From NCBI GenBank assembly GCA_015069565.1, contig SVIJ01000001.1, positions 8,056 through 72,055 of the forward strand: a stretch of 64,000 nt of DNA, given 5' to 3'. Below, in pieces: positions 4,499 to 57,653 of the stretch. The translations under genes were made by a program, and so were the position numbers. The stretch's first letter is position 1; each line of letters opens with the position of its first letter. The notes under the pieces were generated by a model. The model did no database searches, had not been told where the DNA came from, and saw only the letters and a program-made list of their open reading frames with translations. This DNA comes from Clostridiales bacterium (GTDB lineage: Bacteria; Bacillota; Clostridia; Christensenellales; Borkfalkiaceae).

Positions 4499-5497
4499 AT
4501 GGTTAAATATATAGCGAAAAGATTGCTGCTGTGCCTTTTGGTGCTGTTCGGCGTATCTGTGATTATTTATTGCTTGGTTCTTTTGATGCCGACCGACTTC
4601 GTTGACCAAAAGTTTGCTTCGCAAATCGCGCAGGGCGCAATGGACAAACAGGCAATTCAGGAAATGAAAGAAAAATACGCCTTGGCGGATAAATCCTTCG
4701 CGGGGATCTTCAATGGGTATTTTAACTGGCTTGGAGGGGTTTGTACGGGGGATCTCGGCAGATCCTTCAAGTACGACGCACCCGTCACTACGGTTATCGT
4801 GGAAAATATGGGCATTTCCTTCGGGATCTCGTTTGTCGCGCTCGTGTTGCAGTTTGCAATCGCAATCCCTTTGGGTATTAAGGCGGCTTGCAATCAATAT
4901 GGCAAAACGGACTATATCGTGACAATCTTGACGATGATGGGTATTTCCTTGCCCACCTTCTTCTTGGCGGCGTTGCTCGTACAGGTGTTCGCCATCAATC
5001 TCGGCTGGTTCCCCGTGAACGGCTTGGTGACGGCAAACCTGCCTACGGATACGTCCGCGTTTATGCGTTTCTTGGACGAACTGTGGCATCTTGTATTGCC
5101 GATGACCACGCTTGTAATTTTGTCCATCGGCGGCTTGATGCGTCACACGCGTACGAATATGCTCGAAGTTTTGAACGCCGATTACATTCGTACTGCAAGA
5201 GCGAAGGGCTTGTCCGAAAGAACGGTCGTGTATAAGCACGCGTTCAAGAACACGATGATCCCCATCGTCACGATGACGGCAGGGATTATTCCCAGCCTGT
5301 TCGGCGGTGCGATGATCACTGAAACGGTATTCGGTATCCCTGGTATCGGGAAAATGGCGTACGACGCCTTGAAGATCGGCGACGTGCCGTTCGTTATGGG
5401 CTACAATATGTTCCTTGCCATCTTGACGGTGCTCGGAACGTTGTTGTCCGACTTGATGTATATGGTGGTTGACCCTCGCGTCAAGCTTACAAAATAA
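4499..5497 (+). CDS. Opp/Dpp-type ABC permease (OppB-like)
   Basis: Multi-TM protein with the conserved cytoplasmic loop YIRTARAKGLSERTVVYKHAFKN. Position in the operon fits. Confidence 0.9.
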   Translation: MVKYIAKRLLLCLLVLFGVSVIIYCLVLLMPTDFVDQKFASQIAQGAMDKQAIQEMKEKYALADKSFAGIFNGYFNWLGGVCTGDLGRSFKYDAPVTTVIVENMGISFGISFVALVLQFAIAIPLGIKAACNQYGKTDYIVTILTMMGISLPTFFLAALLVQVFAINLGWFPVNGLVTANLPTDTSAFMRFLDELWHLVLPMTTLVILSIGGLMRHTRTNMLEVLNADYIRTARAKGLSERTVVYKHAFKNTMIPIVTMTAGIIPSLFGGAMITETVFGIPGIGKMAYDALKIGDVPFVMGYNMFLAILTVLGTLLSDLMYMVVDPRVKLTK

Positions 5498-17936: not shown

Positions 17937-18778
17937 AGGGCTGGCTGATTTACGACGAAGCAGGGGCGGCGCGCAACGAGTGGTTTATCGGCGAGTGCCT
18001 GCGCTATGCGAAGGAGTACGGGCTAGATTTGCGGTTGCAGATTGCGTGTGGCGAAGCTTGCCCCGACGAAGAGTTGCCTGATTTTGCGCTCGTGAGAACG
18101 ATTGCCCCTACGCTCAGCGAGCGTTTGGAAAAAGGGGGCGTCCGCGTGTTTAACAATGCGGAAGTGTCGGCGGTTGCCAACGATAAGTGGTACACCCACC
18201 AACGAGCGCTAACGCTCGACCTTCCCGTGATGGCGACACTACTTTCATCCGCTTGTCAAGAGAGTTCACCCTTTGGCTACCCTGTGGTGGTAAAAAAGCG
18301 TGACGGTCACGGCGGCAGCGAAGTGTATAAAGCGGATACGGAGTGGGAGTACCGCGCGCTTTGGCAGGGGCGCAATCCTGCGGACTACGTGACGCAGGCG
18401 ATTTGCTCGGAGCTTGGGAAGGATATGCGCGTTTACCTGCTCGGCGGCGAGATTTTAGGGGCGGTTTTGCGGACGTCTGAAACGGATTTCCGTAGCAACT
18501 TTTCGCTTGGCGGAAAGGTTGAATGCGTACCTGTCCCCCACGAAATTCAAAAAATGGTGCAAAAACTACATAAAAATCTGCAAACGGATTTTGTCGGAAT
18601 GGATTTTATTCGCCACGGCGGCGAATGGGTTTTGAACGAAATCGAAGACGTTGTAGGCAGCCGAATGCTGTACAAGTCGGCAGGGCTGGACGTGGCGAGA
18701 GCCTATATAATGCACGTGGCGAAAGCAATGGCAAAAACAACGGAAAAAACGCCTGAAAGGGGGCAAGAGAATGGATAA
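17933..18778 (+). CDS. RimK-type ATP-grasp ligase 2
   Basis: The start MKGWLIYDE overlaps the upstream stop (ATGA), and I prefer it to the listed 17876 start. GYPVVVKKRDGHGGSEVY; GKDMRVYLLGGEILGAV; DFRSNFSLGG; DFVGMDFI...VLNEIEDVVG. Confidence 0.8.
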   Translation: MKGWLIYDEAGAARNEWFIGECLRYAKEYGLDLRLQIACGEACPDEELPDFALVRTIAPTLSERLEKGGVRVFNNAEVSAVANDKWYTHQRALTLDLPVMATLLSSACQESSPFGYPVVVKKRDGHGGSEVYKADTEWEYRALWQGRNPADYVTQAICSELGKDMRVYLLGGEILGAVLRTSETDFRSNFSLGGKVECVPVPHEIQKMVQKLHKNLQTDFVGMDFIRHGGEWVLNEIEDVVGSRMLYKSAGLDVARAYIMHVAKAMAKTTEKTPERGQENG

Positions 18779-21611
18779 CAAGAACATCTTTATCAGCTAT
18801 GGGCACGGAACGCACGGCGAGAAGATTCAGCGGCTTGCGGATGATTTACGCAAATACGGCTTCAACGTCTTTTTCGACGTCGATTACTTAAAGCTTGGCG
18901 ACTGGGAACAAACCATCGACAAGCACATCGTCGCGTGTAAATACTTCCTGTTTTTCGTTTCCGAGCGTTCGACGTCCCCCGACGGGTACTGCTTGAACGA
19001 GCTTTGCCGCGCAGGTGAAAACAACTCGGTGATCATCCCCATTTTGGTGGACGATTCGCGCGTGCCGCTTAGCATCAACAAATACCAACGCCTGTTCTTC
19101 AAGGACTGCTTTGAAGGGGCGGACGGCTTGAACGAGAACAAGTACAAGGATTTTCTTATTCAGCTCGTTTCCATTTTGAGCGGAAACGTCAAGCTTGGCT
19201 TTGCGGACGAAGACGCGCGCTTGGAAGCGATTTTGCAGCCCATCTCGTCCAAGGATTTCGTCTTCCGCTACTACGACGATTTCTGCGGCAGAAAGGAAGC
19301 CTTCCAAAAGTTTGAAGAATTCGTGGCGTCGCCCAAGAACTTTTTCTGGATTAAAGCCAGACCTGGGTGCGGTAAAACGGCGTTTTCGAGTATGCTTATC
19401 TGGCGTTATTCGGAGTTTGTTGCGGCGGCGCATTTCTGCAAGTTCAACAACTCGGACAGAGCGAACCCGAAATACATCATCTCGTCGATTGCCTACCAGC
19501 TTGCAGGGGCGTTGCCCGAGTACAAGAAAAAGCTTTGCGAGCTGACGGGCTTGGAATCGGTGTTCGAGAAAAACGCTATGCGTATCTTTGAGTATTTGCT
19601 CATCGAGCCGACGCTCGATTTACACCCGAGCCGCCCCGTCGTGATCGTAATCGACGCGCTGGACGAGTGCTCTTGGCGTGGGGACAACGAGCTTTGCAAG
19701 CTTTTGCAAAGAATGCGTGGACGCATACCTGCCTGGATGAAATTCGTAATGACGAGCCGCGACGAAGCGGATATTCGCAGATATTTATCCCTGATGGCAA
19801 CGTCCTACACCCTTTCCGATACGGAAACGGACGACGACCTTCGCGAGTATTACAGAAAGCAATTTCCCCATGCGGGCGAAGACAAAATCGACGTCTTAGT
19901 GACGAAGGCGGAAGGGTCCTTCCTGTACGCGAGTGAAATCGTCAAGCAAATCAAGGAAGAAAACTTAACGCTCGACGATATCCATTTCTTCCCCGTCGGT
20001 ATTTACGGTTTCTTCAACGACTGCTTTTTGCGTATGTTCGGCAACGAAGCGGAGAACGAGATTACCTACGACGACGTAAAGCCGCTGTTAGAGTTTTTGT
20101 GTATTTCGCAAGAGCCTGTCGACGTCGATTTCTTGGAAGAATATTTGGAGCTCGACGAGTACCGCATCAACCAAATTTTGGCGCTCATTAGCGGTATGTT
20201 CCCCGTGCGTGACCGCACGATTGAGCCTGTACATAAATCACTTGTCGACTGGCTGACCGATTCCCACGACGTGGGGCATATCTTCTACGTCAGCAGAAAG
20301 AGCGGCTACAAGCGCTTGCTTTCCTATATCGAAGGCAAGTACGCAAGCGGCAAGGTGGACGATCCGTACGTGATGAAGTATTTTGGGGACACCCTGATCG
20401 CCTTAAAATCGTACGAGCGCTTGGCGGAAATTTTGAACGATTACGAGCTGCAACGCACCGTGATTGAAAAGCTCGACTTCGATTCGGGGCTGGAAAGATA
20501 CCTGTTGGAGCTCAAAAGCCTGCACGAAAACAAGAGCGAGCTTTGCGTCAAGCTTTTGTCCGAAGATACCTTCATCAAGCTCTTTTCAGCGAATCGTAGA
20601 CTGTTGTACAATTCAGGGATGTTCTTCACCTTAAAGAGCATCGGCTTGTCCGTAGCCTTGCGCACGGATAATCGAAACTGGGGCTTGGAAGGGGAAGTAG
20701 GAAAGGTTTTCTACTATTATATAGTAGAAGACTTTGCAAAAGCCATCAAAAAGGCAAAGACCCTGCTTGCGAGCGACGAGCTGAAAACGGACTACGTACT
20801 GCAATCGGAGCTTTATAACGTCAAGGGTCTTTCCGAGAGAAAGCTCGTGCTCTTTGACGACGCGCTCGAAAGCTTTGAAAACTGCATTGCCGCCACCGAA
20901 AGCGTGGAAGAAGCGCACAGCGAAAACAGCGATACCGAGTTTGAGCTTTCCTTGGCGCATCTTATCAAGGCGAAGATTTATCTTGCGATGCTCGATTTTT
21001 CCGCGTGCAATAAAAACTGCAAGAAGGCAATCAAAATCCTTGCGCGCAAGGTAGACGAGATGCCCGATTGCGACAAGCGGACGTCGAACATTTTGTTCCT
21101 TGCCGAAGACTATCGCGTTTTTGCCGACGCGCTCATTTGGCAAGGGGAATACGAAGAAGCGGCGGATAAGCTCAAAGAATGTCAGGACATCTACCAAGCG
21201 AACAACGGCTCGGTGGACCGGTACTATATTCGTTATAAATACACGTCGCTCTTATTGCATATTTTGCAAAAGGAAAGCGACGGCGCGGTGGAAGAGCTGG
21301 AAGATATGCTGGCGCGCGAAGCGACAAGCTCGTACGACAAGGGGCGGCTGTATCATTATATCGCGCTTTGCATATACTTGAATGGACGGGAGAATCCCGA
21401 GCTTGTCAAGAAGGGCTTTGAAGCGGCGAAAAAGGGTGTGGATACCTTCGACGGAATCGACGCTCTGCTCGAAAAGGCGGAGTGCGACCATTTGGCGCAA
21501 AAGCTTGCGAAGATGGCAGGCGCGCGCTATATGAGCGACGATGATGAAAACGAATACGTAGACGCTTGGATTGAGTACGTTGACGGATTTTTGCAGGAGA
21601 TAATCGGTTGA
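18771..21611 (+). CDS. TIR-NACHT(STAND NTPase)-TPR-like protein (bacterial NLR-like), 946 aa
   Basis: N-terminal TIR (IFISYGH...; FLFFVSERS...YCLNEL with Glu77 at 18999..19001). Walker A ARPGCGKT (K202). NACHT-type Walker B VVIVIDALDEC (D295-E299). The C-terminal ~400 aa is helical-repeat/TPR-like. The ATG overlaps the upstream gene by 8 nt. Confidence 0.85.
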   Translation: MDNKNIFISYGHGTHGEKIQRLADDLRKYGFNVFFDVDYLKLGDWEQTIDKHIVACKYFLFFVSERSTSPDGYCLNELCRAGENNSVIIPILVDDSRVPLSINKYQRLFFKDCFEGADGLNENKYKDFLIQLVSILSGNVKLGFADEDARLEAILQPISSKDFVFRYYDDFCGRKEAFQKFEEFVASPKNFFWIKARPGCGKTAFSSMLIWRYSEFVAAAHFCKFNNSDRANPKYIISSIAYQLAGALPEYKKKLCELTGLESVFEKNAMRIFEYLLIEPTLDLHPSRPVVIVIDALDECSWRGDNELCKLLQRMRGRIPAWMKFVMTSRDEADIRRYLSLMATSYTLSDTETDDDLREYYRKQFPHAGEDKIDVLVTKAEGSFLYASEIVKQIKEENLTLDDIHFFPVGIYGFFNDCFLRMFGNEAENEITYDDVKPLLEFLCISQEPVDVDFLEEYLELDEYRINQILALISGMFPVRDRTIEPVHKSLVDWLTDSHDVGHIFYVSRKSGYKRLLSYIEGKYASGKVDDPYVMKYFGDTLIALKSYERLAEILNDYELQRTVIEKLDFDSGLERYLLELKSLHENKSELCVKLLSEDTFIKLFSANRRLLYNSGMFFTLKSIGLSVALRTDNRNWGLEGEVGKVFYYYIVEDFAKAIKKAKTLLASDELKTDYVLQSELYNVKGLSERKLVLFDDALESFENCIAATESVEEAHSENSDTEFELSLAHLIKAKIYLAMLDFSACNKNCKKAIKILARKVDEMPDCDKRTSNILFLAEDYRVFADALIWQGEYEEAADKLKECQDIYQANNGSVDRYYIRYKYTSLLLHILQKESDGAVEELEDMLAREATSSYDKGRLYHYIALCIYLNGRENPELVKKGFEAAKKGVDTFDGIDALLEKAECDHLAQKLAKMAGARYMSDDDENEYVDAWIEYVDGFLQEIIG

Positions 21612-22445: not shown

Positions 22446-22740
22446 ACTGTCCGAAGTGGTGAATTGAACGCAATGCGTTCGTGAATTGAAACCTGCGGTT
22501 TCGTGAATTCTCGCTGACGCTCCGTGAATTGTTTGCCTTTGGCAAACGTTGCGGAAAAATTGAAAATCATTCCATAACGCAAGGCAACGCCTTGCAATTC
22601 ACGACGGCATAGCCGTCAATTCACGCGTTTGAAAAACGCAATTCACGATTGCCTTTGGCAATCAATTCACTCCACAGCGATATGTTTGCCTACGCCAAAC
22701 GTGGGGAACGTAGGGCGGGGGCTTGCTCCCGCCGAATGGG
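22446..22740. repeat. Hairpin-array element, copy A (GTGAATT/AATTCAC type) plus GC-hairpin module
   Basis: Core 22459..22670: 4 x (GTGAATT + short hairpin), a central hairpin, then 4 x (hairpin + AATTCAC). Followed by GCGATAT + GTTTGCC..CCAAAC and GGCGGGGGCTTGCTCCCGCC. Confidence 0.85.
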
Positions 22741-23535: not shown

Positions 23536-23756
23536 TTGTCCTTGCGGACAAGCGAGATTACGCCTGCGGCGTAGTGAGATTTACCTGCGGTAAGCGATAT
23601 TATGCTACGCACAGCGATATGTTTGCCTGTGGCAAACGTAAACGTAGGGCGGGGGCTTGCTCCCGCCGAATATAGGGACGGGCGTTCCTAATCGTCCAAA
23701 TGTAGGGGAGCGGTTTACGCTCCTGACAAAACGGGCGATTCGTGAATCGCCCCTAC
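23536..23756. repeat. Hairpin-array element, variant copy A' (GYGAKAT type) plus GC-hairpin and multibranch module
   Basis: TTGTCC-TTGC-GGACAA; GCGAGAT+TACGCC-TGC-GGCGTA; GTGAGAT+TTACC-TGC-GGTAA; GCGATAT...; GCGATAT+GTTTGCC-TGT-GGCAAAC; GGCGGGGGCTTGCTCCCGCC. GTAGGGG...CCCCTAC encloses two further hairpins. Confidence 0.75.
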
Positions 23757-27562: not shown

Positions 27563-27685
27563 AAAACGACGGATTTGCGGCGCAATAGTGCGTTGAACTT
27601 GCGTTTTCTCTCGGTCACGTACGTCTTGTACGCTCCCGTCGAGAAAGCCTTGTTCGCCTGCTCTTGCTTGCAACTGCGCCGTTTT
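27563..27685. repeat. ~122-bp structured repeat unit (family 2, A-type), followed by a degenerate partial unit to about 27765
   Basis: AAAACGACGGATTTGCGGCGCAATAG...CTTGCTTGCAACTGCGCCGTTTT. Near-identical to units at 54820 and 55064. The ends AAACGNCG/CGCCGTTT are complementary. Confidence 0.8.
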
Positions 27686-27846: not shown

Positions 27847-27852
27847 CACATA

Positions 27853-28029
27853 GTCAGTAAAGACGAACACCGTAGAAAGCAAGTCCTTTTGGATAATGGG
27901 AAACCGCTTGCCGAGGTAGAAGGAAAAACTTTTTTTGAAAAGTAGTGTGTCCTTATGCCGATTGCGGTGTAAGGAATTTTTTTATGTCAGGCGATAATTT
28001 ACAGCGAAATCGCTTAAAGGAGGTAATTC
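27853..28029 (+). promoter_or_regulatory. rplJ 5' leader (L10-leader-like autoregulatory region)
   Basis: A ~175-nt untranslated leader with a hairpin plus T7 run at about 27951..27983, just before the RBS AAGGAGG. L10(L12)4-binding leaders are known at this position in Bacillota. I did not verify the fold. Confidence 0.4.
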
Positions 28030-32958: not shown

Positions 32959-32975
32959 TCTCGTTTGGAACGGTA

Positions 32976-33308
32976 GGGCGGGGGCTTGCTCCCGCCGATT
33001 GTAGGGACAGGCGTCCCCGACTGTCCGAAAAAGTGAATTGAACGCTATGCGTTCGTGAATTGAAATCTACGATTTCGTGAATTGTCGCTTGCGCGACGTG
33101 AATTGTTTGCCGATGGCAAACGTTGTGGTAGAATTTAAATTTTTCCATAACGCAAGGCAGAGCCTTGCAATTCACGACGGCTGTGCCGTCAATTCACGCG
33201 TTTGAAAAACGCAATTCACGATTGCTGTAAGCAATCAATTCACTTTGCCGCTTGCCGTATGAGATCCTTCGGCTACGCTCAGGATGACAAAGTGGGGCGC
33301 GTCAGGAT
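32976..33308. repeat. Hairpin-array element, copy B (GC hairpin + core 33033..33243 + GAGATCC module)
   Basis: See the finding at 33033. 304 bp (32976..33279) repeat at 35026..35329 with 4 mismatches. Confidence 0.9.
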
Positions 33309-33388
33309 GTTTGGAACTCAAAAATTAGAACGAAAGGGGCAGGTACGCGTTGAATGTGCACGTGTATCCAAGTGAAAGGAGAGGAAAT

Positions 33389-34864
33389 ATGAAAAAGAAA
33401 CTGCTTAGTGTATTGCTTGCGCTGTGCGGCGCGTTTGCGTTTACTGCCTGTGGTGGCGGAGATGGCGATAGCGTCGTTCTCGATAACAACTCCACGCCTG
33501 CGGCAAGTATCCCGACGGATTCCACGCCTGCGGACACTACGCCCGCCGAACCCGTCTTGCAGGATATGGATACCGCTTTTTCGGGTGCGAAAATTCTTTG
33601 GGAAAAGAGCCATTTGAGCGCAATGAATTCCCCTATCAAAACTTTCGAAGAAATCGTAGACCAACAGCTTGAACTTTTGGCGCAGGATTTAATCTACCGT
33701 CTTACGTATGTGTATGGGTACAATGAAACAGTACCTGTTCGACAATATATTCCTGTGACGCAACCATTAATGGTCAACGGAACGGAGTTGTCATGGAATG
33801 GTTATCCAGCAGAAATCGAAAGTGGGAAGTTGCTCGTAAATACTGGGGCTTCAAAACATGACGTTACTCATACCGTGAGCACTATGCACGTGGATTGCTT
33901 GTATTGCTATCAAACGTCCTTAGTTGAATACAATAATAATGCAAATCGTTTTCACCATACGTCTAATTTTTATTTATCTGGCGCAATGGAGGGAAGATAT
34001 TATAGCGCGGGCGCATTGGATAATGATGAACTTTCCGATACGAGCGTTCCCGAAAAAAAGTGGATTTATTCTTTGGATATAACCACTTATGAAAGTTACC
34101 TAAACTCCTACAAAAATAATTTCAAAATGGCTTTGCTGGAAATTGCAGGGAATAAAACGGTAACGGGTGATTATAGCGACGATGTATATCAAAATTTATT
34201 GCAATCTGTCAACACGTTTTTTATAGATGAAACAAAAGTTGCTGAATATATCTTATCAAAGGTCATTGGATCGAATTTGGTGGAATTTGACGAAGCTGTT
34301 TATGCTCAAAACTTTACAGACGCAGCAAATAAAATTTGTCGGTCTAAGTTTGGGGATATCGCGATATTTGGCGAATATGCTCCCCATTATTATAAGGCGT
34401 ATAAAAAGGTAATTCCTGCGATTGTGGAACAGGCGCTTGCGAACACCTTTGAAAATACGGACGTTTGTATCTATCCCGTGGTGAATAGATATGCCGTAAA
34501 TACAATCAATCATTATCAAATCGGCGGATCGTCGACGATGCGCGAAGCGGTGCTGATGCCCAAGGCGGGTGAAGTGGGAACGCTTACGGTCTTCGTGGAA
34601 GGAAATGAAGACTTTACGCTTTCCTACGACGTGTCGGTAAACGGCGTTGTGACGAGCAAGACTGTACAGGTCGTTTTGACGGACGGCAAAGCAACAGTGG
34701 ATTTGGATATTTCCGAAACGTTTGGCGCGTATAACGGAAACACGAACTCTTACACGGATGACTACATATACGGAAATTCGGGCGTGGATAGCCATGGTGA
34801 TAATTATATCGTATTTTACTACGATCGCGAAGATATGCACCTGTGGTTTAAGGGTGTGAAGTAA
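33389..34864 (+). CDS. Hypothetical lipoprotein (491 aa), AT-rich cassette gene
   Basis: RBS AAAGGAGAGG. Signal plus lipobox (AFAFTAC-GGGDGD). The central part is visibly AT-richer than its neighbours. Confidence 0.75.
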   Translation: MKKKLLSVLLALCGAFAFTACGGGDGDSVVLDNNSTPAASIPTDSTPADTTPAEPVLQDMDTAFSGAKILWEKSHLSAMNSPIKTFEEIVDQQLELLAQDLIYRLTYVYGYNETVPVRQYIPVTQPLMVNGTELSWNGYPAEIESGKLLVNTGASKHDVTHTVSTMHVDCLYCYQTSLVEYNNNANRFHHTSNFYLSGAMEGRYYSAGALDNDELSDTSVPEKKWIYSLDITTYESYLNSYKNNFKMALLEIAGNKTVTGDYSDDVYQNLLQSVNTFFIDETKVAEYILSKVIGSNLVEFDEAVYAQNFTDAANKICRSKFGDIAIFGEYAPHYYKAYKKVIPAIVEQALANTFENTDVCIYPVVNRYAVNTINHYQIGGSSTMREAVLMPKAGEVGTLTVFVEGNEDFTLSYDVSVNGVVTSKTVQVVLTDGKATVDLDISETFGAYNGNTNSYTDDYIYGNSGVDSHGDNYIVFYYDREDMHLWFKGVK

Positions 34865-34953
34865 AAAACAAAATAAAAGGGGCAGGTATGCGTTGAAAGG
34901 CGTACTTGCTTTTTTTTGTGTAAAGCAGGGGAAGCGTTTCTGGGGGAACGGTT

Positions 34954-35329
34954 GAGATCCTTCGGCTACGCTCAGGATGACAAAGTGGGGGTGCTCAGGA
35001 TGACGAAGTGGGGCGCTCGGGATAGGGGCGGGGGCTTGCTCCCGCCGATTGTAGGGACAGGCGTCTCCGACTGTTCGAAAAAGTGAATTGAACGCTATGC
35101 GTTCGTGAATTGAAATCTACGATTTCGTGAATTGTCGCTTGCGCGACGTGAATTGTTTGCCGATGGCAAACGTTGTGGTAGAATTTCAATTTTTCCATAA
35201 CGCAAGGCAGAGCCTTGCAATTCACGACGGCTGTGCCGTCAATTCACGCGTTTGAAAAACGCAATTCGCGATTGCTGTAAGCAATCAATTCACTTTGCCG
35301 CTTGCCGTATGAGATCCTTCGGCTACGCT
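34954..35329. repeat. Hairpin-array element, copy C (GAGATCC module + GC hairpin + core 35083..35293)
   Basis: Direct repeat of copy B, offset by exactly 2050 bp. Confidence 0.9.
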
Positions 35330-35385
35330 AATGTATAATTTTTTATAAAAATTACAAAAAATGCTAAAAAGGTGGGTGAAATCGG

Positions 35386-35531: not shown

Positions 35532-36284
35532 ATGGCAGTTATCACTATGAAGCAGCTCTTGGAAGCAGGCGTACACTTCGGTCACCAGACCAGAAGATGG
35601 AACCCCAAAATGAAGAAGTACATCTTCGCGGCAAGAAACGACATTCACATCATCGACTTGCAACTCACCGCTAACTTGATCGAAGAAGCGTACAAGTTCG
35701 TTGTGGAAAGCGTTAAGGCAGGCAAGTCCGTTCTCTTCGTTGGTACGAAGAAGCAGGCGCAAGATGCAATCAAGGAAGAAGCAGAACGTTGCGGTATGTA
35801 CTACGTCAACTCTCGTTGGCTTGGCGGTTGCCTTACCAACTTCAAGACGATGAGAAGCCGCGTTGAACGCCTTGAAAAGCTTGAAGCTATGGAAGCTAAC
35901 GGCGATTTCGATCTGCTCCCCAAGAAGGAAGTTATGCTCCTTAAAAAGGAAATGGGCAAGTTGCAGGCAAACCTTGGCGGTATCAAGAAGATGAAGAATA
36001 TGCCCGGCGTTATGTTCGTGGTTGACCCCCACAACGAAGATATCGCTATCAAGGAAGCAAAGAAGCTTGGCATCAAGATCGTTGCGATCACCGATACCAA
36101 CTGCGATCCCGATGAAATCGACTACGTAATCCCCGGCAACGACGACGCTATCCGCGCAATCAAGCTCATCTCTTCCGTAATTGCAAACGCAGTTATCGAA
36201 GCAAACCAGGGCGAAGAAGCGGTGGCAGCTCCCGTTGAAGAAGCAGTTGCAGAAGAAGCAGTAGCGGCGGAAGAAAACGCGTAA
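35532..36284 (+). CDS. rpsB: 30S ribosomal protein S2
   Basis: [22 protein letters not shown]. Confidence 0.95.
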
Positions 36285-36332
36285 GCTTTGCTTAAATCAG
36301 AAAAATCATAGAAAGATAAGGAGAATAGAATT

Positions 36333-37225
36333 ATGGCATTCACGGCTAAAGACGTAATGGCGCTCCGTGCAAGAACGGACGCTGGCGTAATGGATTGCAA
36401 AAAGGCTCTTACCGACGCTGACGGCGATATGGATAAGGCGGCAGACCTTTTGAGAGAAAGAGGTATCGCAAAGGCGGCTAAGAAGGCTTCCCGTATTGCG
36501 GCGGAAGGTATCGTTGCTTCTTACGTAGAAGGCAACGTGGGCGTATTGCTCGAAATCAACTGCGAATCCGACTTCGTTGCAAAGAATCCCCAGTTCGCGG
36601 AAATCGCAAACGTAATCGCAAAGGTTATCGTTGCTTGCGATCCTGCTGACGTAGACGCTTTGCTTGCTTGCGAAGTTCCTGGCGAAGGCTCGGTGGAAGA
36701 TTACTTGAAGAGCAAGATCGCTGTTATCGGCGAAAAGATTGCTGTTCGTCGTTTCACGAAGTACGTTTCGAACGGCTTCATCGCTACCTACATTCACTTG
36801 GGTGGCAAGCTCGGCGTTATGCTCGATATGAACGGCGAAAACACCGAAGAAGCTGCGGCGGTTGCGCACGACATCACCTTGCAGGTTGCATTCACGAAGC
36901 CTACCTATCTTACGAAGGATCAGGTTTCCGAAGAAGCGCTTGAAAAGGAAAAGGCTGTATTGAAGCAGCAGGCAATCAACGAAGGCAAGCCCGAAGCAAT
37001 CGCTGAAAAGATGGTTATGGGTAGAATCAAGAAGTACTACGAAGAAAACTGTCTTGTAGAACAGGCGTTCATTAAGGACGACAGCGTGAAGATTGCTGAC
37101 CTTTTGAAGAAGGGCAACGTGACCATCGCAAACTGCGTATTCTACGTAATGGGCGAGGCCTTGAAAAGAAGAGCGAAGACCTTAGCGAAGAAGTTGCAAA
37201 GCAAGTTGCGGCTATGAAGAACTAA
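36333..37225 (+). CDS. tsf: Elongation factor Ts (apparent 1-nt frameshift near the 3' end)
   Basis: MAFTAKDVMALRARTDAGVMDCKKAL. The listed ORF ends at 37217 with a non-canonical tail. The canonical tail LEKKSEDLSEEVAKQVAAMKN* lies in the +2 frame and ends at 37225. Confidence 0.9.
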
Positions 37226-37249
37226 GTCTTTCGCAAACAAACGAAAAGA

Positions 37250-37283
37250 AAAACTCACGGAAACGTTCCGTGAGTTTTTTGTT
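37250..37283. terminator. Bidirectional intrinsic terminator
   Basis: CTCACGG-AAACGTT-CCGTGAG followed by T6. Confidence 0.75.
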
Positions 37284-37286
37284 TTT

Positions 37287-37496
37287 TTAGATAGAAAAAA
37301 GCTCGTTGGGGGTAACTTCGTAGATTTGACACAGAAATAGAATTTGTTGGTAATTCAATTCAAATACTCCGTTTTCAAACCGACTGTATTGCTGTTGTGT
37401 CATTCCCATTTTTGCCGCAACTTCTTTTTGAGTGAAACCTTTGAATTTGCGCGCTTCTTTTAAATTATTACCGATCTTTTTGCTTAAACATTCCAT
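37287..37496 (-). CDS. XRE-family HTH regulator (69 aa)
   Basis: MECLSKKIGNNLKEARKFKGFTQKEVAAKMGMTQQQYSRFENG. Internal start at 37496 preferred over the listed 37664. Confidence 0.75.
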   Translation of the reverse strand: MECLSKKIGNNLKEARKFKGFTQKEVAAKMGMTQQQYSRFENGVFELNYQQILFLCQIYEVTPNELFSI

Positions 37497-37592
37497 ACGA
37501 AAAAAACATACCACAAAATGATGTAAAAGTCTTGACATACAACACAAAGTGATGTATAATAACAACAAGGAAAATGATAAAGTGAGGTTGCT

Positions 37593-38723
37593 ATGGAAGA
37601 AAATAAGGATTTGGAGTACGTGGAAGAGGAAACTACCGCAGAGGAAATTGCGCTTGCCGATCAAATGGGAGAATGCTTGCTGAAAGTATGGAAACTGGTC
37701 GGGTGCTTTGTGGCGGGGTGGATCGCTATGATGATCGGAATGACTTTGATCGATTATCGTGTAGATCAGTTCGCAATAGGTATCGTCTTTTTCATCGGCG
37801 GCGTTGCGTTGATGCCCCTGCCGAGCGTTATGCTGTTATGGGGCGGTGCAGGGTTTAGAGAATTATTTGATACCGATTATTTCATTGAAACGACTTATGC
37901 AGACGGACGAAAAACGGTGCAATTTGACGGTTCGATGACGTTTGCGAGTAAAATTGCCACTTTAGCGGTCGCTTTTTTGGCTGGTTTCATAATCACTCCC
38001 ATCCGTATCGTGATTGGTGTAATCAGTTTCCAAAAGGCGAAAAAAGAGTTGGGGATAGAAAAATTGCCAATCAAAGAAGACGTTAAATTCCCGTTCTTGG
38101 TGGCGATTTTGGCGTTCGTTGTGGGCTGCGTGCTGAATCTTGCCGTCACGAATATTGCAGGGGCGGTGCAGGACAAACAGATGCACACAGGTGATTACAC
38201 GGCGGAGGAAACGCTGGAAATCGTGGAGGGTTGGAAGAATTCAATGGCGGAACAATCCTTTTCGTATCGTGTCAATGGGAGTTGGTTGGAGGAAGGCAAT
38301 CTTTGTATCATTGACGTCAATTATGATAGGGGCGTGTACGCATTTACTGTCAGCAAAGCCAACAAGGGTGCAAGTGATAGAGTGTTCACGGAAGCGGATT
38401 CCCCGTTGCCTTTCGGTGTGTATTTGTATGAGGACGGCGAGTGGTCGCAAAACGCAAATTCTTTGTCGATAGACCAAAAGAGATTACTCAAGAGTTGCAC
38501 CTTGGACGCATATTTTGAAGCGTTCACGAGCCGTGAAACGATATTGAAGAATAATTCGTTTATGGGCGAAGAAGGTTATCGCCTTATGGTATATTATGAT
38601 TGGAATGGCGAAGAAAAATGTATGTTCTGGGAAGTTTACAAAAATGGTAATAGACCTTACCGAATCAACGGTTACGAAGGCTTGGGAGAGCTTTACGGTT
38701 CGGGTGACATTATGTTTGACTGA
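37593..38723 (+). CDS. Hypothetical 4-TM membrane protein with a soluble C-terminal domain (376 aa)
   Basis: Divergent from the XRE gene. Hydrophobic segments at about aa 35-85 and 120-190. I recognise no motif. Confidence 0.6.
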   Translation: MEENKDLEYVEEETTAEEIALADQMGECLLKVWKLVGCFVAGWIAMMIGMTLIDYRVDQFAIGIVFFIGGVALMPLPSVMLLWGGAGFRELFDTDYFIETTYADGRKTVQFDGSMTFASKIATLAVAFLAGFIITPIRIVIGVISFQKAKKELGIEKLPIKEDVKFPFLVAILAFVVGCVLNLAVTNIAGAVQDKQMHTGDYTAEETLEIVEGWKNSMAEQSFSYRVNGSWLEEGNLCIIDVNYDRGVYAFTVSKANKGASDRVFTEADSPLPFGVYLYEDGEWSQNANSLSIDQKRLLKSCTLDAYFEAFTSRETILKNNSFMGEEGYRLMVYYDWNGEEKCMFWEVYKNGNRPYRINGYEGLGELYGSGDIMFD

Positions 38724-38753
38724 TTGAGTAGGATATTGTAGGGTGAAAAGTGA

Positions 38754-38790
38754 GAAGCGTGCGAATGAGTTCCGCACGCTTCGTTGTTTT
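38754..38790 (+). terminator. Intrinsic terminator
   Basis: GAAGCGTGCG-(9 nt)-CGCACGCTTC followed by a T-rich tail. Confidence 0.6.
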
Positions 38791-38939
38791 ACAAAAAAAG
38801 TTTGATTTTTCGTCTACTTTTTTGCAAAATAGTATAGATTTTTTTTGCAATATATGGTACAATAGTTTAGAGCGTGCAAAATGCAAAAATGCGTAGTCTT
38901 TTTGCGCCGCTTACCCAACAAACAAAAAAGGAGAACGGT

Positions 38940-44745: not shown

Positions 44746-44904
44746 GTGAATTGATTTGCTTTGCAAATCGTGAATTGCCCTTGCGGGCGTGAATTGCATT
44801 CCACAAATGCGTGAATTGACGGCGGAAACGCCGTCGTTGCGGAAAAAATGAAAATCGTTCCATAACGTAAGGCTTTGCTTTGCAATTCACGAAACGGCAT
44901 TCAC
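44746..44904. repeat. Hairpin-array element, copy D (right arm truncated)
   Basis: 4 x (GTGAATT + hairpin), central GTTGCGG...CCATAAC, then only GTAAGGC-TTT-GCTTTGC + AATTCAC and a partial unit. Confidence 0.8.
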
Positions 44905-44943
44905 TAAAAAAATAATTTTTTCTTTGCTGTCAAGTAAAAATGC

Positions 44944-44972
44944 TTGACAGCTTGTTTTATATCGTGTATAAT
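44944..44972 (+). promoter_or_regulatory. Consensus promoter of ylxM-ffh-rpsP
   Basis: TTGACA, 17-nt spacer, TATAAT. The -35 lies in the inverted repeat GCTGTCAAG...CTTGACAGC. Confidence 0.65.
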
Positions 44973-45003
44973 AGCAAAGGATTGAAAGCAAGGGGGCGCG
45001 AAA

Positions 45004-54203: not shown

Positions 54204-54821
54204 ATGAAAGTATTGATGTTGAACGGAAGCCCCCACGAACACGGTTGTACCTACGTTGCCCTTTCCGAAGCGGCAAAGGCGCTCAATGAAAAGGGGATCG
54301 AAACGGAGATTGTTTGGCTGGGCAAAGAGCCCTTGGAAGGCTGTCGCGGCTGCGCGGCTTGTTCCAAGCTTTGGAAGTGCGTGGTGGACGATAAGGTGAA
54401 CGAATTTGCCGAAAAGGCGGCGGAAGCGGACGGCTTTATTTTTGGCTCGCCCGTGCATTACGCATCGGCAGGCGGCGCAATCGTTTCCTTTATGGATAGA
54501 CTTTTTTACAGTAGCGGCAGAAAGATGGCGTACAAGCCTGCGGCTTGCGTGGTGAGCTGCCGTAGAGCAGGCGCAAGCGCGACCTTTGACGTTTTGAATA
54601 AGTACTTCACCATCAACCAAATGCCCGTCGTATCGTCCAACTATTGGAACGAAATCCACGGCAACACCCCCGAACAGGCTTTGCAGGATGCGGAAGGCTT
54701 GCAGACGATGCGGCTGCTCGGCAAGAACATGGCTTGGCTCTTGCAATGTATCGAAGCGGGCAAGGCGGCAGGGATTGCACCTGAGAAGGAGAAGAAAATC
54801 TGGACCAACTTTATTAGATAA
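54204..54821 (+). CDS. Flavodoxin-fold NAD(P)H-dependent FMN reductase / iron-sulfur flavoprotein-like
   Basis: MKVLMLNGSPHEHGCTY...ADGFIFGSPVHYASAGG. Confidence 0.7.
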   Translation: MKVLMLNGSPHEHGCTYVALSEAAKALNEKGIETEIVWLGKEPLEGCRGCAACSKLWKCVVDDKVNEFAEKAAEADGFIFGSPVHYASAGGAIVSFMDRLFYSSGRKMAYKPAACVVSCRRAGASATFDVLNKYFTINQMPVVSSNYWNEIHGNTPEQALQDAEGLQTMRLLGKNMAWLLQCIEAGKAAGIAPEKEKKIWTNFIR

Positions 54822-55110
54822 ACGGCGAATTTGCGGCGCAATAGTTCGTTGAACTTGCGTTTCCCCTAGGTCACGTACGCCTTGTACGCTCCCGTCGGGG
54901 AAGCCGCGTTCGCCTGCTCTTGCTTGCAACTGCGCCGTTTAGAAACGGTGGATATACGGTGCAATACGGCGTTAAACCTGCGCGCCCTTCGGTCACGTAC
55001 GTTTTGTAAGCTCCCATCAGGGTGCTCGGTTTGCCTTGTCTTGCTTGCAACTGCACCGTTTAGAAAACGACGGATTTGAGGCGCAATAGTTCGTTGAACT
55101 TGCGTTTTTT
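54820..55110. repeat. Family-2 structured repeat, 2.4 tandem units (54820..54940, 54943..55061, 55064..55110)
   Basis: Units start AAACGGCG / AAACGGTG / AAAACGACG and end CGCCGTTT / CACCGTTT. Period about 122 nt. Unit 1 begins inside the stop codon of the upstream gene. Confidence 0.85.
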
Positions 55111-55206
55111 AACGCAAGGCTGTGCCTTGCATATCACATTTGCGGAGCAAATATATCACGTTTACGCAGTAGACATATCACAAATCCCAGCAGGGATTTA
55201 TATCAC
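55111..55206. repeat. Hairpin-array half element, ATATCAC variant
   Basis: GCAAGGC-TGT-GCCTTGC ATATCAC; ATTTGC-GGA-GCAAAT ATATCAC; GTTTAC-GCA-GTAGAC ATATCAC; AAATCCC-AGCA-GGGATTT ATATCAC. Confidence 0.8.
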
Positions 55207-55210
55207 TGTC

Positions 55211-57069: not shown

Positions 57070-57140
57070 TTGGTTGCCTATTCTTATAAACGGCGCAATA
57101 CTTCGTTAAACCTGCGCGCCCTTCGGTCACGTACGGCTTC

Positions 57141-57419
57141 TAGCCAGACAAGAATAATACGAACCTGATTTTTAATGGCAGATTTCGTCTAAATACGGCG
57201 TTGAAATCCTCGGTTAACCGTCAAGGTTGCCCTACGGTTTCGCCTTGTCTTATCCAAAATCGGCTCATTAAAAATTGCTACGCACCGCAAAGCGTGAAAT
57301 TTTCGATAGATTTTGGCGAAGGTGGGCGCAGTCGTATACGAATACTACAAGCCCAAATTTGCCGAAAGATGCGGAAAGAGCGTGCTTTGCGGCTGGTTTG
57401 TATTATTCTTGTCTGGCTA
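57141..57419. mobile_element. MITE-like element (279 bp) with perfect 19-bp terminal inverted repeats, nested in a family-2 repeat
   Basis: TAGCCAGACAAGAATAATA at 57141..57159 and its exact reverse complement at 57401..57419. The flanks 57088..57140 and 57420..57460 join into one family-2 unit. Confidence 0.7.
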
Positions 57420-57653
57420 TGCTCCCGTCAGGGTGCTCGGTTTGCCTTGTCTTGCTTGTTTCTAAAAATAGGCAGGGGCTATTCTTGTATACAGCGCAAT
57501 ACGGCGTTAAACTTTTAGGAAATATTTTTATTCAAAAATATAGGGCAATTCAGTTTACTTTTTTTGATTTTTTTTGTACAATAGGAAAGAGCGTTCCTTT
57601 ATGTATGGTCGCGCGCGTACGCGAAAGAGAAAAGGGCGCAAGGGAGATCTTCT

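Follow-up and report, generated by a model that had tools for sequence, protein, structure and literature searches.

Two-armed hairpin arrays of uncultured gut Clostridia extend the Gut-1 motif and probably form a modular DNA repeat

Introduction

Gut-1 (RF01706) has stood in Rfam since 2010 as an orphan small RNA (sRNA) of unknown gut organisms. It was defined from 43 examples, all from human-gut metagenomes and none in any sequenced organism, was graded a certain RNA by its discoverers from covariation, and was modelled as the three hairpins of a single arm (Weinberg et al. 2010, PMC2864571). The literature that we searched held no later paper mentioning it. Here, we analyse a 64,000-nt stretch of a Clostridiales bacterium (GenBank assembly GCA_015069565.1, contig SVIJ01000001.1, positions 8,056 to 72,055 of the forward strand; hereafter, the window), in which six loci carry arrays of short palindromes joined to a conserved 7-mer. 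Like these arrays, Gut-1 has a conserved 7-mer (GUGAAAU) between short variable hairpins and comes from the gut environment; its hosts, its two arms, its copy density and its strain dynamics were undescribed, and the present data argue against the label of an 'sRNA gene'.

Among repeats known at the DNA level, repetitive extragenic palindromes (REPs), the bacterial interspersed mosaic elements (BIMEs) that they build and the REPIN-RAYT systems resemble the arrays in placing many extragenic palindromes behind a short single-stranded motif (GTAG there, GTGAWWT here). They likewise occur as inverted doublets or mosaics, cluster after genes, vary between strains and serve as recombination substrates. 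RAYT, the cognate Y1 HUH transposase, is single-copy in REP-bearing genomes. A short 5' motif with a palindrome in many extragenic and inverted copies is indeed what we found (six loci in 64 kb), whereas a conserved palindrome sequence is not: REP palindromes have one or few conserved sequences per genome, while the arrays combine an invariant 7-mer with varied stems (~70 among 105 hairpins) in arms of 3-10 units.

We read the arrays, with a probability of roughly 0.6, as a REP/BIME-like modular DNA repeat of the Gut-1 family that is constrained as single-stranded hairpins and acts as a recombination hot-spot. New with respect to the published motif are its full architecture, its hosts, a sub-family of hairpins with a G-C foot, the copy density, DNA-like pairing statistics and modular exchange at the strain level.

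Results

Architecture of the arrays

An earlier note on this DNA had laid out one copy (B, 33033-33243) as four left-arm units, a centre and four right-arm units repeating about every 22 nt. This layout is borne out exactly, and Tandem Repeats Finder returns the same 22-nt period. The arrays of the window are as follows.

33033..33121, + strand: copy B, left arm; GTGAATT followed by a hairpin, four times (stem and loop GAACGC-TAT, GAAATC-TAC, GTCGC-TTGC, GTTTGCC-GAT)
33122..33151, + strand: copy B, centre; terminal 7-mer GTTGTGG, 16-nt AT-rich spacer, CCATAAC
33152..33243, + strand: copy B, right arm; hairpin followed by AATTCAC, four times (GCAAGGC-AGA, GACGGC-TGT, GCGTTT-GAA, GATTGC-TGTAA)
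35083..35293, + strand: copy C, within a 300-nt block (35026-35325) of 99% identity to 32976-33275; one 7-mer mutated (AATTCGC)
22459..22670, + strand: copy A, two-armed, 85-90% identity to B; the third unit is the non-palindromic CTCGCTGACGCTCC
44746..44890, + strand: copy D, four left units with hairpins unlike those of A and B; one right-arm unit, then decay
23536..23637, + strand: one-armed array of the classical Gut-1 sub-family, 7-mers GCGAGAT, GTGAGAT, GCGATAT and GCGATAT
55114..55206, + strand: one-armed array, GCAAGGC-TGT-GCCTTGC and then ATATCAC four times

All six loci are made of a 7-mer (GTGAATT or GYGAKAT) and a short near-perfect palindrome, and four of the six are two-armed about a centre of the form GTTGYGG, AT-rich stretch, CCATAAC; that of copy D is 88% identical to that of copy A. 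The hairpins of the array at 23.5 kb close with T-A and end in GTTTGCC-TGT-GGCAAAC, while the array at 55.1 kb corresponds to the right arm of an element whose complete form occurs in other strains, a ~122-nt repeat taking the place of its left arm and centre in the window. The 'perfect two-armed design' that the note saw is thus not a conserved trait. Neither of these two loci is two-armed and both use other 7-mers (GYGAKAT, GTGATAT), many arrays elsewhere are one-armed, and some loci compared with the window (numbered with an L) join unlike arms, namely GTGAATT with ATTTCAC in L023 and GTGAATT with ATATCAC in L319. Nor does every arm hold four hairpins, given the third unit of A (CTCGCTGACGCTCC) and the single right-arm unit of D, and the proposed central hairpin contains a C.A mismatch in copies A and D. 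The six ranges listed as copies did capture every match of our unit model, although they also take in unrelated neighbouring repeats.

The window contains 32 GTGAATT sites where 10.8 would be expected; none of 100 shuffles attains 32, and 26 of the 32 fall in four clusters. A general scan for any 7-mer recurring every 17-27 nt retrieved only these loci and one coding repeat. Similarly, a unit covariance model (R1), built from an alignment of 24 units with no filter for pairing (A1), yielded 15 non-overlapping matches in the window, all inside the six loci. Arrays were parsed by anchoring on the 7-mer and with the covariance model, as a plain detector of hairpin spacing was too noisy (1-8 arrays in shuffled sequence).

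Across 105 distinct hairpins, the foot pair is G-C in 89% and the loop-closing pair C-G in 82%; 66% of loops are triloops and 24% have 4 nt. Stems span 3-7 bp, and all units within an arm differ, although some stems (GACGGC, GAACGC, GCAACGC, GCAAGGC) recur in several genomes. Positions 1, 3, 4 and 7 of the 7-mer read G, G, A and T in 108 of 108 units, an invariance that the collecting pattern G[TC]GA[ATG][AT]T itself imposes; 104 of these units carry T at position 2. The dominance of GTGAATT likewise stems from how loci were found. Arms comprise 3-10 units, each arm ending in a second 7-mer, GTTRYKG. A non-palindromic unit, T(T/C)CGCT-N-CGCTC, recurs in copy A, L024, L038, L053, L295 and L319. 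The spacing between 7-mers ranges from 16 to 25 nt with a mode of 22, which implies no helical phasing on duplex DNA. Such a range fits a folded single strand, where hairpin length leaves the distance between 7-mers unchanged.

As a separate observation, TGA is part of the invariant 7-mer core and the unit period is 1 modulo 3 in 53% of cases, so that 18 of 29 arms place stops in all three frames, as counted for a ribosome entering the arm from outside, against ~12 expected.

Pairing is kept on both strands alike

The rod envisaged for copy B, with paired 7-mers and side hairpins, is its predicted minimum-free-energy fold: -100.3 kcal/mol and z = -10.2 for the + strand as RNA, and the same predicted rod with z = -9.3 for the - strand as DNA. 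Differences between copies A and B do concentrate in loops (15/27 positions, against 5/98 in stems, 0/56 in 7-mers and 7/30 in the centre), and one clean C-G to T-A replacement confirms the reported compensatory change. The 24-unit alignment A1 further attests that the repeat is real and that pairing is kept while sequence varies, since 97.2% of its hairpin cells are paired against 59.5% in shuffles (0/500), with slid controls at 44% or less. Its covariation is strong, with a score of 0.94 against 0.19 and all 6 pairs varying on both sides.

We then scored every spacer between consecutive 7-mers, folded or not, which gave 85 distinct spacers and 466 possible pairs. Watson-Crick pairs account for 418 of these (90%; 25% by chance), G.T for 8, A.C for 7 and other pairs for 33. 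The constraint is therefore Watson-Crick complementarity, symmetric on both strands, plus the 7-mer. G.T and A.C, both rare and about equally so, are what palindromic DNA looks like, whereas an RNA made from one strand should tolerate G.U far better than A.C.

These numbers do not support the suggestion that the element is probably a + strand RNA, as wobbles are too rare and too balanced to assign a strand and the other strand folds equally well. One of the G-U stems on which that suggestion rested (GTTTAC/GTAGAC at 55.1 kb) is a perfect GTTTAC/GTAAAC in strain L315, so the wobble in the window is a strain-specific point mutation. That all copies share the orientation of their flanking genes is a feature of the window alone: across other genomes the asymmetric centre can face in either direction, and its polarity relative to genes, judged from noisy calls of open reading frames (ORFs), is mixed. 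The covariation seen, for its part, cannot tell RNA from single-stranded DNA. Template-switch mutagenesis at quasi-palindromes, in which one hairpin arm is copied from the other, can also yield covariation without selection.

A structured RNA is the alternative that must be weighed first. Transcribed arrays would serve either as multi-site decoys or scaffolds that present single-stranded GUGAAWU to an RNA-binding protein, or as hairpin blocks that stabilise or insulate mRNAs in cis. The certain-RNA grade given from covariation by those who discovered Gut-1 (PMC2864571) speaks for it, and so do the strong pairing covariation and very stable RNA fold reported above and the comparison of A with B, in which loops diverge far more than stems and 7-mers. 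In L016, same-strand genes for a U32 peptidase, a GH2 enzyme and TruB are separated by spacers that two arrays take up, with the upstream stop codon (TGA) inside the first GTGAATT and a ribosome-binding site (RBS) ~10 nt after the last hairpin; from this placement, the arrays there are very probably transcribed, with GUGAAUU as the sense. The element also ends 10-20 nt before an RBS in L053, L096 and L110. Many other copies, however, sit just 3' of strong terminators and ahead of the next promoter, with mixed orientation to genes, and any single transcript of a two-armed element would carry GUGAAUU along one arm and the complementary 7-mer along the other. Triloops dominate, wobble excess is lacking (G.T 8, A.C 7), copy density lies far above that of sRNA genes, and the elements are present, absent or swapped between strains and missing from 557 kb of relatives (see below). 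We hence regard a structured RNA as unlikely, and the lack of G.U excess, the mixed orientation and the strain turnover argue indirectly against the stand-alone sRNA implied by the Rfam type 'Gene; sRNA'.

The arrays as the full-length form of Gut-1

The statement that the repeat matches no named RNA family needs correcting, as Gut-1 matches the two one-armed loci: 55126-55208 on the - strand with 51 bits (gathering score 50) and 23550-23625 on the + strand with 45.5 bits, just under that score. No other Rfam family matched the arrays at gathering or permissive thresholds, and the Gut-1 matches were confined to one-armed loci; the GTGAATT copies A, B and C gave no match to the Gut-1 model even at E<=5. 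These copies likely miss the model because they form a separate sub-family, with hairpins that close with G-C, against U-A in classical Gut-1 and in GYGAKAT arrays, and with T at position 6 of the 7-mer.

The grammar is nonetheless the same, the Gut-1 consensus being GUGAAAU plus hairpin three times and a fourth, closing GUGAAAU. Moreover, the flanks of the Gut-1 seed alignment are already two-armed: BAAV01002358 reads GUGAAAU four times, centre, AUUUCAC four times; BAAZ01000085, BAAZ01000322, BAAZ01000187 and BAAZ01000095 have arms of GUGAUAU and AUAUCAC; and further seeds finish in a hairpin and GUUGCGG, the half-centre seen in the window. Both types are also physically joined. L023 links a GTGAATT arm (four units) to an ATTTCAC arm (four units) that scores 48.1 bits with Gut-1; the right arm of L065 mixes both 7-mers (39.1 bits); in L295, one arm reaches 77.5 bits and the other, on the opposite strand, 41.6 bits; and in L319, L321, L322 and L323 a GTGAATT arm adjoins the ATATCAC arm that gives 51 bits in the window. 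GTGAAAT and GTGAATT are thus mixed inside single elements. Shared grammar and physical continuity support membership of Gut-1 in a broad sense, by sequence comparison, with the GTGAATT copies failing the Rfam score. The two-armed array is the full-length form of the motif, of which the published model covers one arm.

Hosts and distribution

Scanning one genome per species for three GTGAATT 12-19 nt apart returned at least 119 loci, most of them chance matches or other tandem repeats. Among the matches listed, loci with hairpin spacers came only from uncultured gut Clostridia: Ca. Scatosoma, classed as Clostridia incertae sedis in NCBI (L024, L038, L040, L050, L053, L065, L110), RGIG metagenome-assembled genomes (MAGs) named 'Clostridia bacterium' (L016, L023, L080), Clostridiales SIG403 and SIG410 (L052, L096), Christensenella sp. 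UBA3798 (L113) and, as a possible host, a Ruminococcus MAG (L115). NCBI assembly GCA_017462215.1 encodes a protein identical to one from the window. The design common to host genomes is [GTGAAWT + hairpin]n, GTTRYKG, AT-rich spacer, CMRYAAC, [hairpin + AWTTCAC]n, a design that admits different hairpins, 3-10 units and spacers of 8-33 nt.

R1 found 15 matches in the 64-kb window and 51 in 117 kb of element-bearing loci, but 0 at E<=10 in 557 kb comprising 60 loci with relatives of the RuvX-DUF1292 protein (45-81% identity). In the closest relative, L128, the RuvX-rpsB spacer is short, with an ordinary promoter (TTGACG-17-TATAAT) and no repeat. The element is, then, a high-copy, intergenic and fast-changing repeat in a clade of uncultured gut Clostridia.

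Alongside these data, comparison of the rpsB promoter (window 35300-35345, L128 1040-1100) shows the repeat block abutting the -10 in the window, with the -35 gone; this -10 reads TGTATAAT, an extended -10. In L113, whose Ffh is 66% identical, an element (5289-5456) lies just upstream of the ylxM-ffh promoter, the position of copy D (window 44746-44975), with unrelated hairpins, and is either an old insertion or an independent one. A conserved cis-regulator of rpsB or ylxM-ffh was considered and rejected, as the L128 spacer is empty, strains differ and the L113 hairpins are unrelated.

A phage or plasmid origin was also discarded, with no blastn match in PLSDB plasmids or INPHARED phages. Only 2 of 120 pattern matches in IMG/VR were genuine, both on contigs with a host-type tRNA cluster beside the element; these 'viral' contigs (L240 9289-9900, L295 260-940) carry a tRNA cluster, a terminator and a high-scoring Gut-1 element. 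To the eye, the L240 sequence beyond the left arm resembles a sugar-kinase gene at its 3' end, in which case a rearrangement would have its end point in the element.

Modular exchange between strains

Contigs encoding proteins identical to those of the window served to compare strains. Within one species, the RuvX-rpsB spacer exists in four states.

No array: L325, L329, L330
One-armed GCGATAT array: three units in L326, four units in L327 and L331
One two-armed element and no gene: L121, B-like on the left and C-like from the centre on
Two elements bracketing a 491-aa gene: the window (B and C)

The one-armed array ends in GTTTGCC-GAT-GGCAAAC, identical to the fourth hairpin of B including its loop, and is homologous to the 23.5-kb array. 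The unit missing from L326 was lost by fusion of two adjacent hairpins, of which a mismatched stem remains. At 55.1 kb, L319, L321, L322 and L323 have a complete element with four GTGAATT on the left and four ATATCAC on the right, its left arm 78% identical to that of copy D; instead of this left arm and centre, the window, L316 and L315 contain three copies, two copies and part of one copy, respectively, of the unrelated ~122-nt repeat, the junction lying at ...TAAC plus hairpin. At locus A, L309 matches the window through one arm to GTTATGGAAT and continues with a different spacer and a B-like three-unit arm, its neighbouring gene being RNase_T in place of inositol monophosphatase and TIR-NACHT, and L311 has a tandem second element. 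As far as the last hairpin of the left arm, L240 is collinear with L295 at 94%; past that point the two are unrelated. Copy D, on the other hand, is constant in three other samples. Individual strains also have mutated 7-mers, and complementarity between the 7-mers of the two arms is not kept (5/7 pairing positions in L319, 6/7 in L023). Elements thus appear and disappear within a species, lie where strain-variable DNA begins or ends and differ in unit number between strains, and their arms are exchangeable modules, mostly joined at or beside the centre.

Further observations concern genes in or next to strain-variable DNA. The 491-aa gene between B and C (33389-34864) has no Pfam match and a lipoprotein-like signal peptide (MKKKLLSVLLALCGAFAFTAC). 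It is absent from L121, L326, L327 and L331; versions in L325 (457 aa) and L330 (481 aa) share 60-64% identity overall with near-identical termini, so its middle is hypervariable. A gene (18771-21611) for a 946-aa protein that combines TIR_2 and NPHP3_N (NACHT-like) domains, and that may serve in defence against phages, lies on the side of element A where synteny with L309 stops. The tsf-pyrH interval (36284-38874, compared with L325, L326 and L329) is strain-variable with no hairpin array there, a small helix-turn-helix (HTH) gene and a 376-aa gene without Pfam match being present, absent or replaced.

Breakpoints of this kind bring up a site-specific recombination site, in which the centre, an inverted GTTRYKG pair around an AT-rich spacer, would be the crossover core and the GTGAATT units arm-type or accessory sites, with a dedicated recombinase inserting, excising or swapping single-gene cassettes in an attP- or attC-like fashion, possibly on a folded single strand. 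Breaks at or beside the centre agree with it (the hybrid of L121 with a B left and a C right part, the switch of L309 after GTTATGGAAT, the ...TAAC junction at 55.1 kb and the divergence of L240 and L295 from the last left-arm hairpin), as do arms of different 7-mers joined at the centre, accessory-looking single genes bracketed by elements (an HTH gene between A and the 23.5-kb array, the lipoprotein gene between B and C, GH2 in L016, an 843-aa ORF in L050) and the presence or absence of the lipoprotein gene between strains. Yet B and C share 99% identity over 300 nt, past the element ends, so ordinary homologous recombination explains L121; and the hairpins beside the centre are the most conserved part in the window genome, so that homologous exchange is expected there anyway. 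Spacers of 8, 9, 16, 17 and 33 nt do not suit the fixed overlap of 6-8 bp, some junctions lie elsewhere (the outer arm end in L309, within the fourth hairpin in one RuvX-rpsB state), and no recombinase gene is found near any copy examined. A dedicated site of this sort therefore appears very doubtful. Hardly credible is a duplex-DNA binding array with the 7-mers as iteron-like sites for a regulator, partition or nucleoid protein about an AT-rich centre, maybe with a promoter: the modal 22 bp is about two helical turns, the four direct and four inverted sites are symmetric, and weak promoter-like matches occur in the centres of B (TTGCCG-16-TAGAAT, with upstream TG) and A (TTGGCA-17-GAAAAT), but sites 16-25 bp apart are not phased, strict palindromy of arbitrary spacers has no role there, and the hexamers are not conserved in D or in Scatosoma centres, promoter-like sites in the B/C region being at shuffle expectation.

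Comparison with other repeat families

BOX elements of Streptococcus pneumoniae and Correia elements of Neisseria resemble the arrays in being modular, with terminal and a variable number of internal modules, strongly folding by prediction, dispersed between genes and co-transcribed, with a central region between inverted ends. Their modules, unlike those of the arrays, are sequence-conserved and 45-60 nt long, and Correia elements have terminal inverted repeats and a TA duplication, whereas no duplication or conserved target is seen here. A miniature inverted-repeat transposable element (MITE) derived from a DDE transposon was accordingly rejected: the flanks of 10 elements show no duplication or common target, and strain differences are block replacements instead of clean filled and empty sites.

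The attC sites of integrons share with the arrays a structure kept while sequence varies, GTT...AAC 7-nt motifs flanking a recombining centre, and, comparably, action as a folded single strand and association with single-gene cassettes. They were set aside, as GTTGYGG, GTTATKG and CCATAAC do not fit GTTRRRY / RYYYAAC and the window has no integrase; the extrahelical-base signature, the intI gene and the cassette array are lacking here, and multi-hairpin arms have no counterpart in attC. A CRISPR array has repeats of 23-50 nt, non-palindromic spacers about as long and cas genes, and is likewise excluded by a repeat of 7 nt with 'spacers' that are 9-18-nt palindromes. Mycobacterial interspersed repetitive units (MIRUs), a type of variable-number tandem repeat, resemble the arrays as tandem intercistronic units whose number varies between strains (three in L326, four in L327) and in lying flush with the stop and start signals of the genes on either side, as seen in L016. 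MIRU units are, however, 40-100-bp direct repeats of one sequence, without unit-specific palindromes or two inverted arms. Further candidates discarded were helically phased iterons on double-stranded DNA (16-25-nt spacing), a promoter in the centre (matches weak and not conserved) and specific cargo genes (neighbours unrelated). As for the 7-mer itself, the parS/NBS half-site (GTGAAA), the DnaA box, the k-turn or C-box, the RuvC consensus, SECIS and type III antitoxin repeats presumably do not apply, since none, as we take it, fits all 7-mer variants or the context.

Neighbouring genes and repeats

The genes beside the arrays have housekeeping roles and no relation to one another; in L016, the two of 676 aa are not paralogues. 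REP-like hairpins of the GTAG type adjoin four of the six arrays, forming repeat islands between terminators and promoters.

32973..33029, + strand: GTAG-type REP-like hairpins, GTAGGGCGGGGGCTTGCTCCCGCC and then GTAGGGACAGGCGTCCC..., in the duplicated B/C block
22710-22733, 23644-23700 and 35023-35079, + strand: similar GTAG-type hairpins, GTAGGGCGGGGGCTTGCTCCCGCC, GTAGGGACAGGCGTCCC, GTAGGGGAGCGGTTTACGCTCC

Other repeats are the ~122-nt family (27563-27684, 54819-55108, and 57086-57142 with 57418-57458; no Rfam match), which opens with a 45-nt imperfect hairpin (AAAACGACGGATTTGCGGCGCAATAGTGCGTTGAACTTGCGTTTT), forms three tandem copies at 54.8-55.1 kb and has a copy near 57.1 kb apparently split by ~275 nt; and a short repeat, GAGATCCTTCGGCTACGCTCAGGATGACAAAGTGGGG with tandem CTCAGGATGACRAAGTGGGG units, at 33260-33309 and 34953-35020, found also in array-less strains (L325). 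Rfam further identifies an ordinary L10_leader (RF00557, 51.5 bits) at 27852-27991, upstream of rplJ-rplL.

Discussion

A REP/BIME-like DNA repeat of the Gut-1 family accounts best, in our judgement, for the symmetric pairing and the strain-level exchange described here. By this account, what is constrained would be the hairpin as it forms in single-stranded DNA, its perfection being maintained through selection for propagation, template-switch correction of quasi-palindromes, or both. The 7-mer and the hairpin foot may together be recognised by a DNA enzyme of the REP/RAYT (HUH) type that acts in trans and is specific for both structure and sequence, by analogy with recognition of GTAG plus palindrome by RAYTs. 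For the host, the arrays would be recombination hot-spots, and inside an operon an array would also be passively transcribed as a block of stable hairpins.

Several points weigh against such a reading. The 64-kb window contains no transposase, integrase or HUH gene, and no RAYT, recombinase or mobile gene lies near the copies or in the flanks examined; among the elements compared there is no target-site duplication, conserved target or clean filled/empty pair for a single element, strains differing by block replacement. An invariant 7-mer with palindromes that change from unit to unit is unlike REP, and we know of no mechanism generating it; uniform 7-mers beside all-different hairpins within an arm are not explained by a REP-like repeat. 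Neither is the conservation of stems and 7-mers over loops between A and B, which could equally reflect a function at the level of the host. The L016 arrays, very probably transcribed to judge from their context, leave room for an RNA role, and the missing G.U pairs could reflect a need for maximal stability in very short RNA stems.

A bolder proposal, which we hold to be quite unlikely, takes the arrays as substrates of a so far undescribed DNA-processing system of gut Clostridia, whose enzyme would read the 7-mer beside any G-C-closed hairpin in single-stranded DNA and recombine or build elements at the GTTRYKG / AT / CMRYAAC centre. One-at-a-time addition of units with duplication of the 7-mer would give uniform 7-mers with differing hairpins, and the same system would produce arm swaps at the centre and single accessory genes bracketed by elements. 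If true, cassettes would be exchanged, or arrays built, by a mechanism of a new kind.

If the reading as a DNA-level repeat holds, the Rfam family needs a new label, and pipelines that call its matches 'sRNA' mislead. For the biology of these abundant gut bacteria, the arrays mark hot-spots of gene-content variation and offer an entry to a possibly new mechanism of recombination or propagation.

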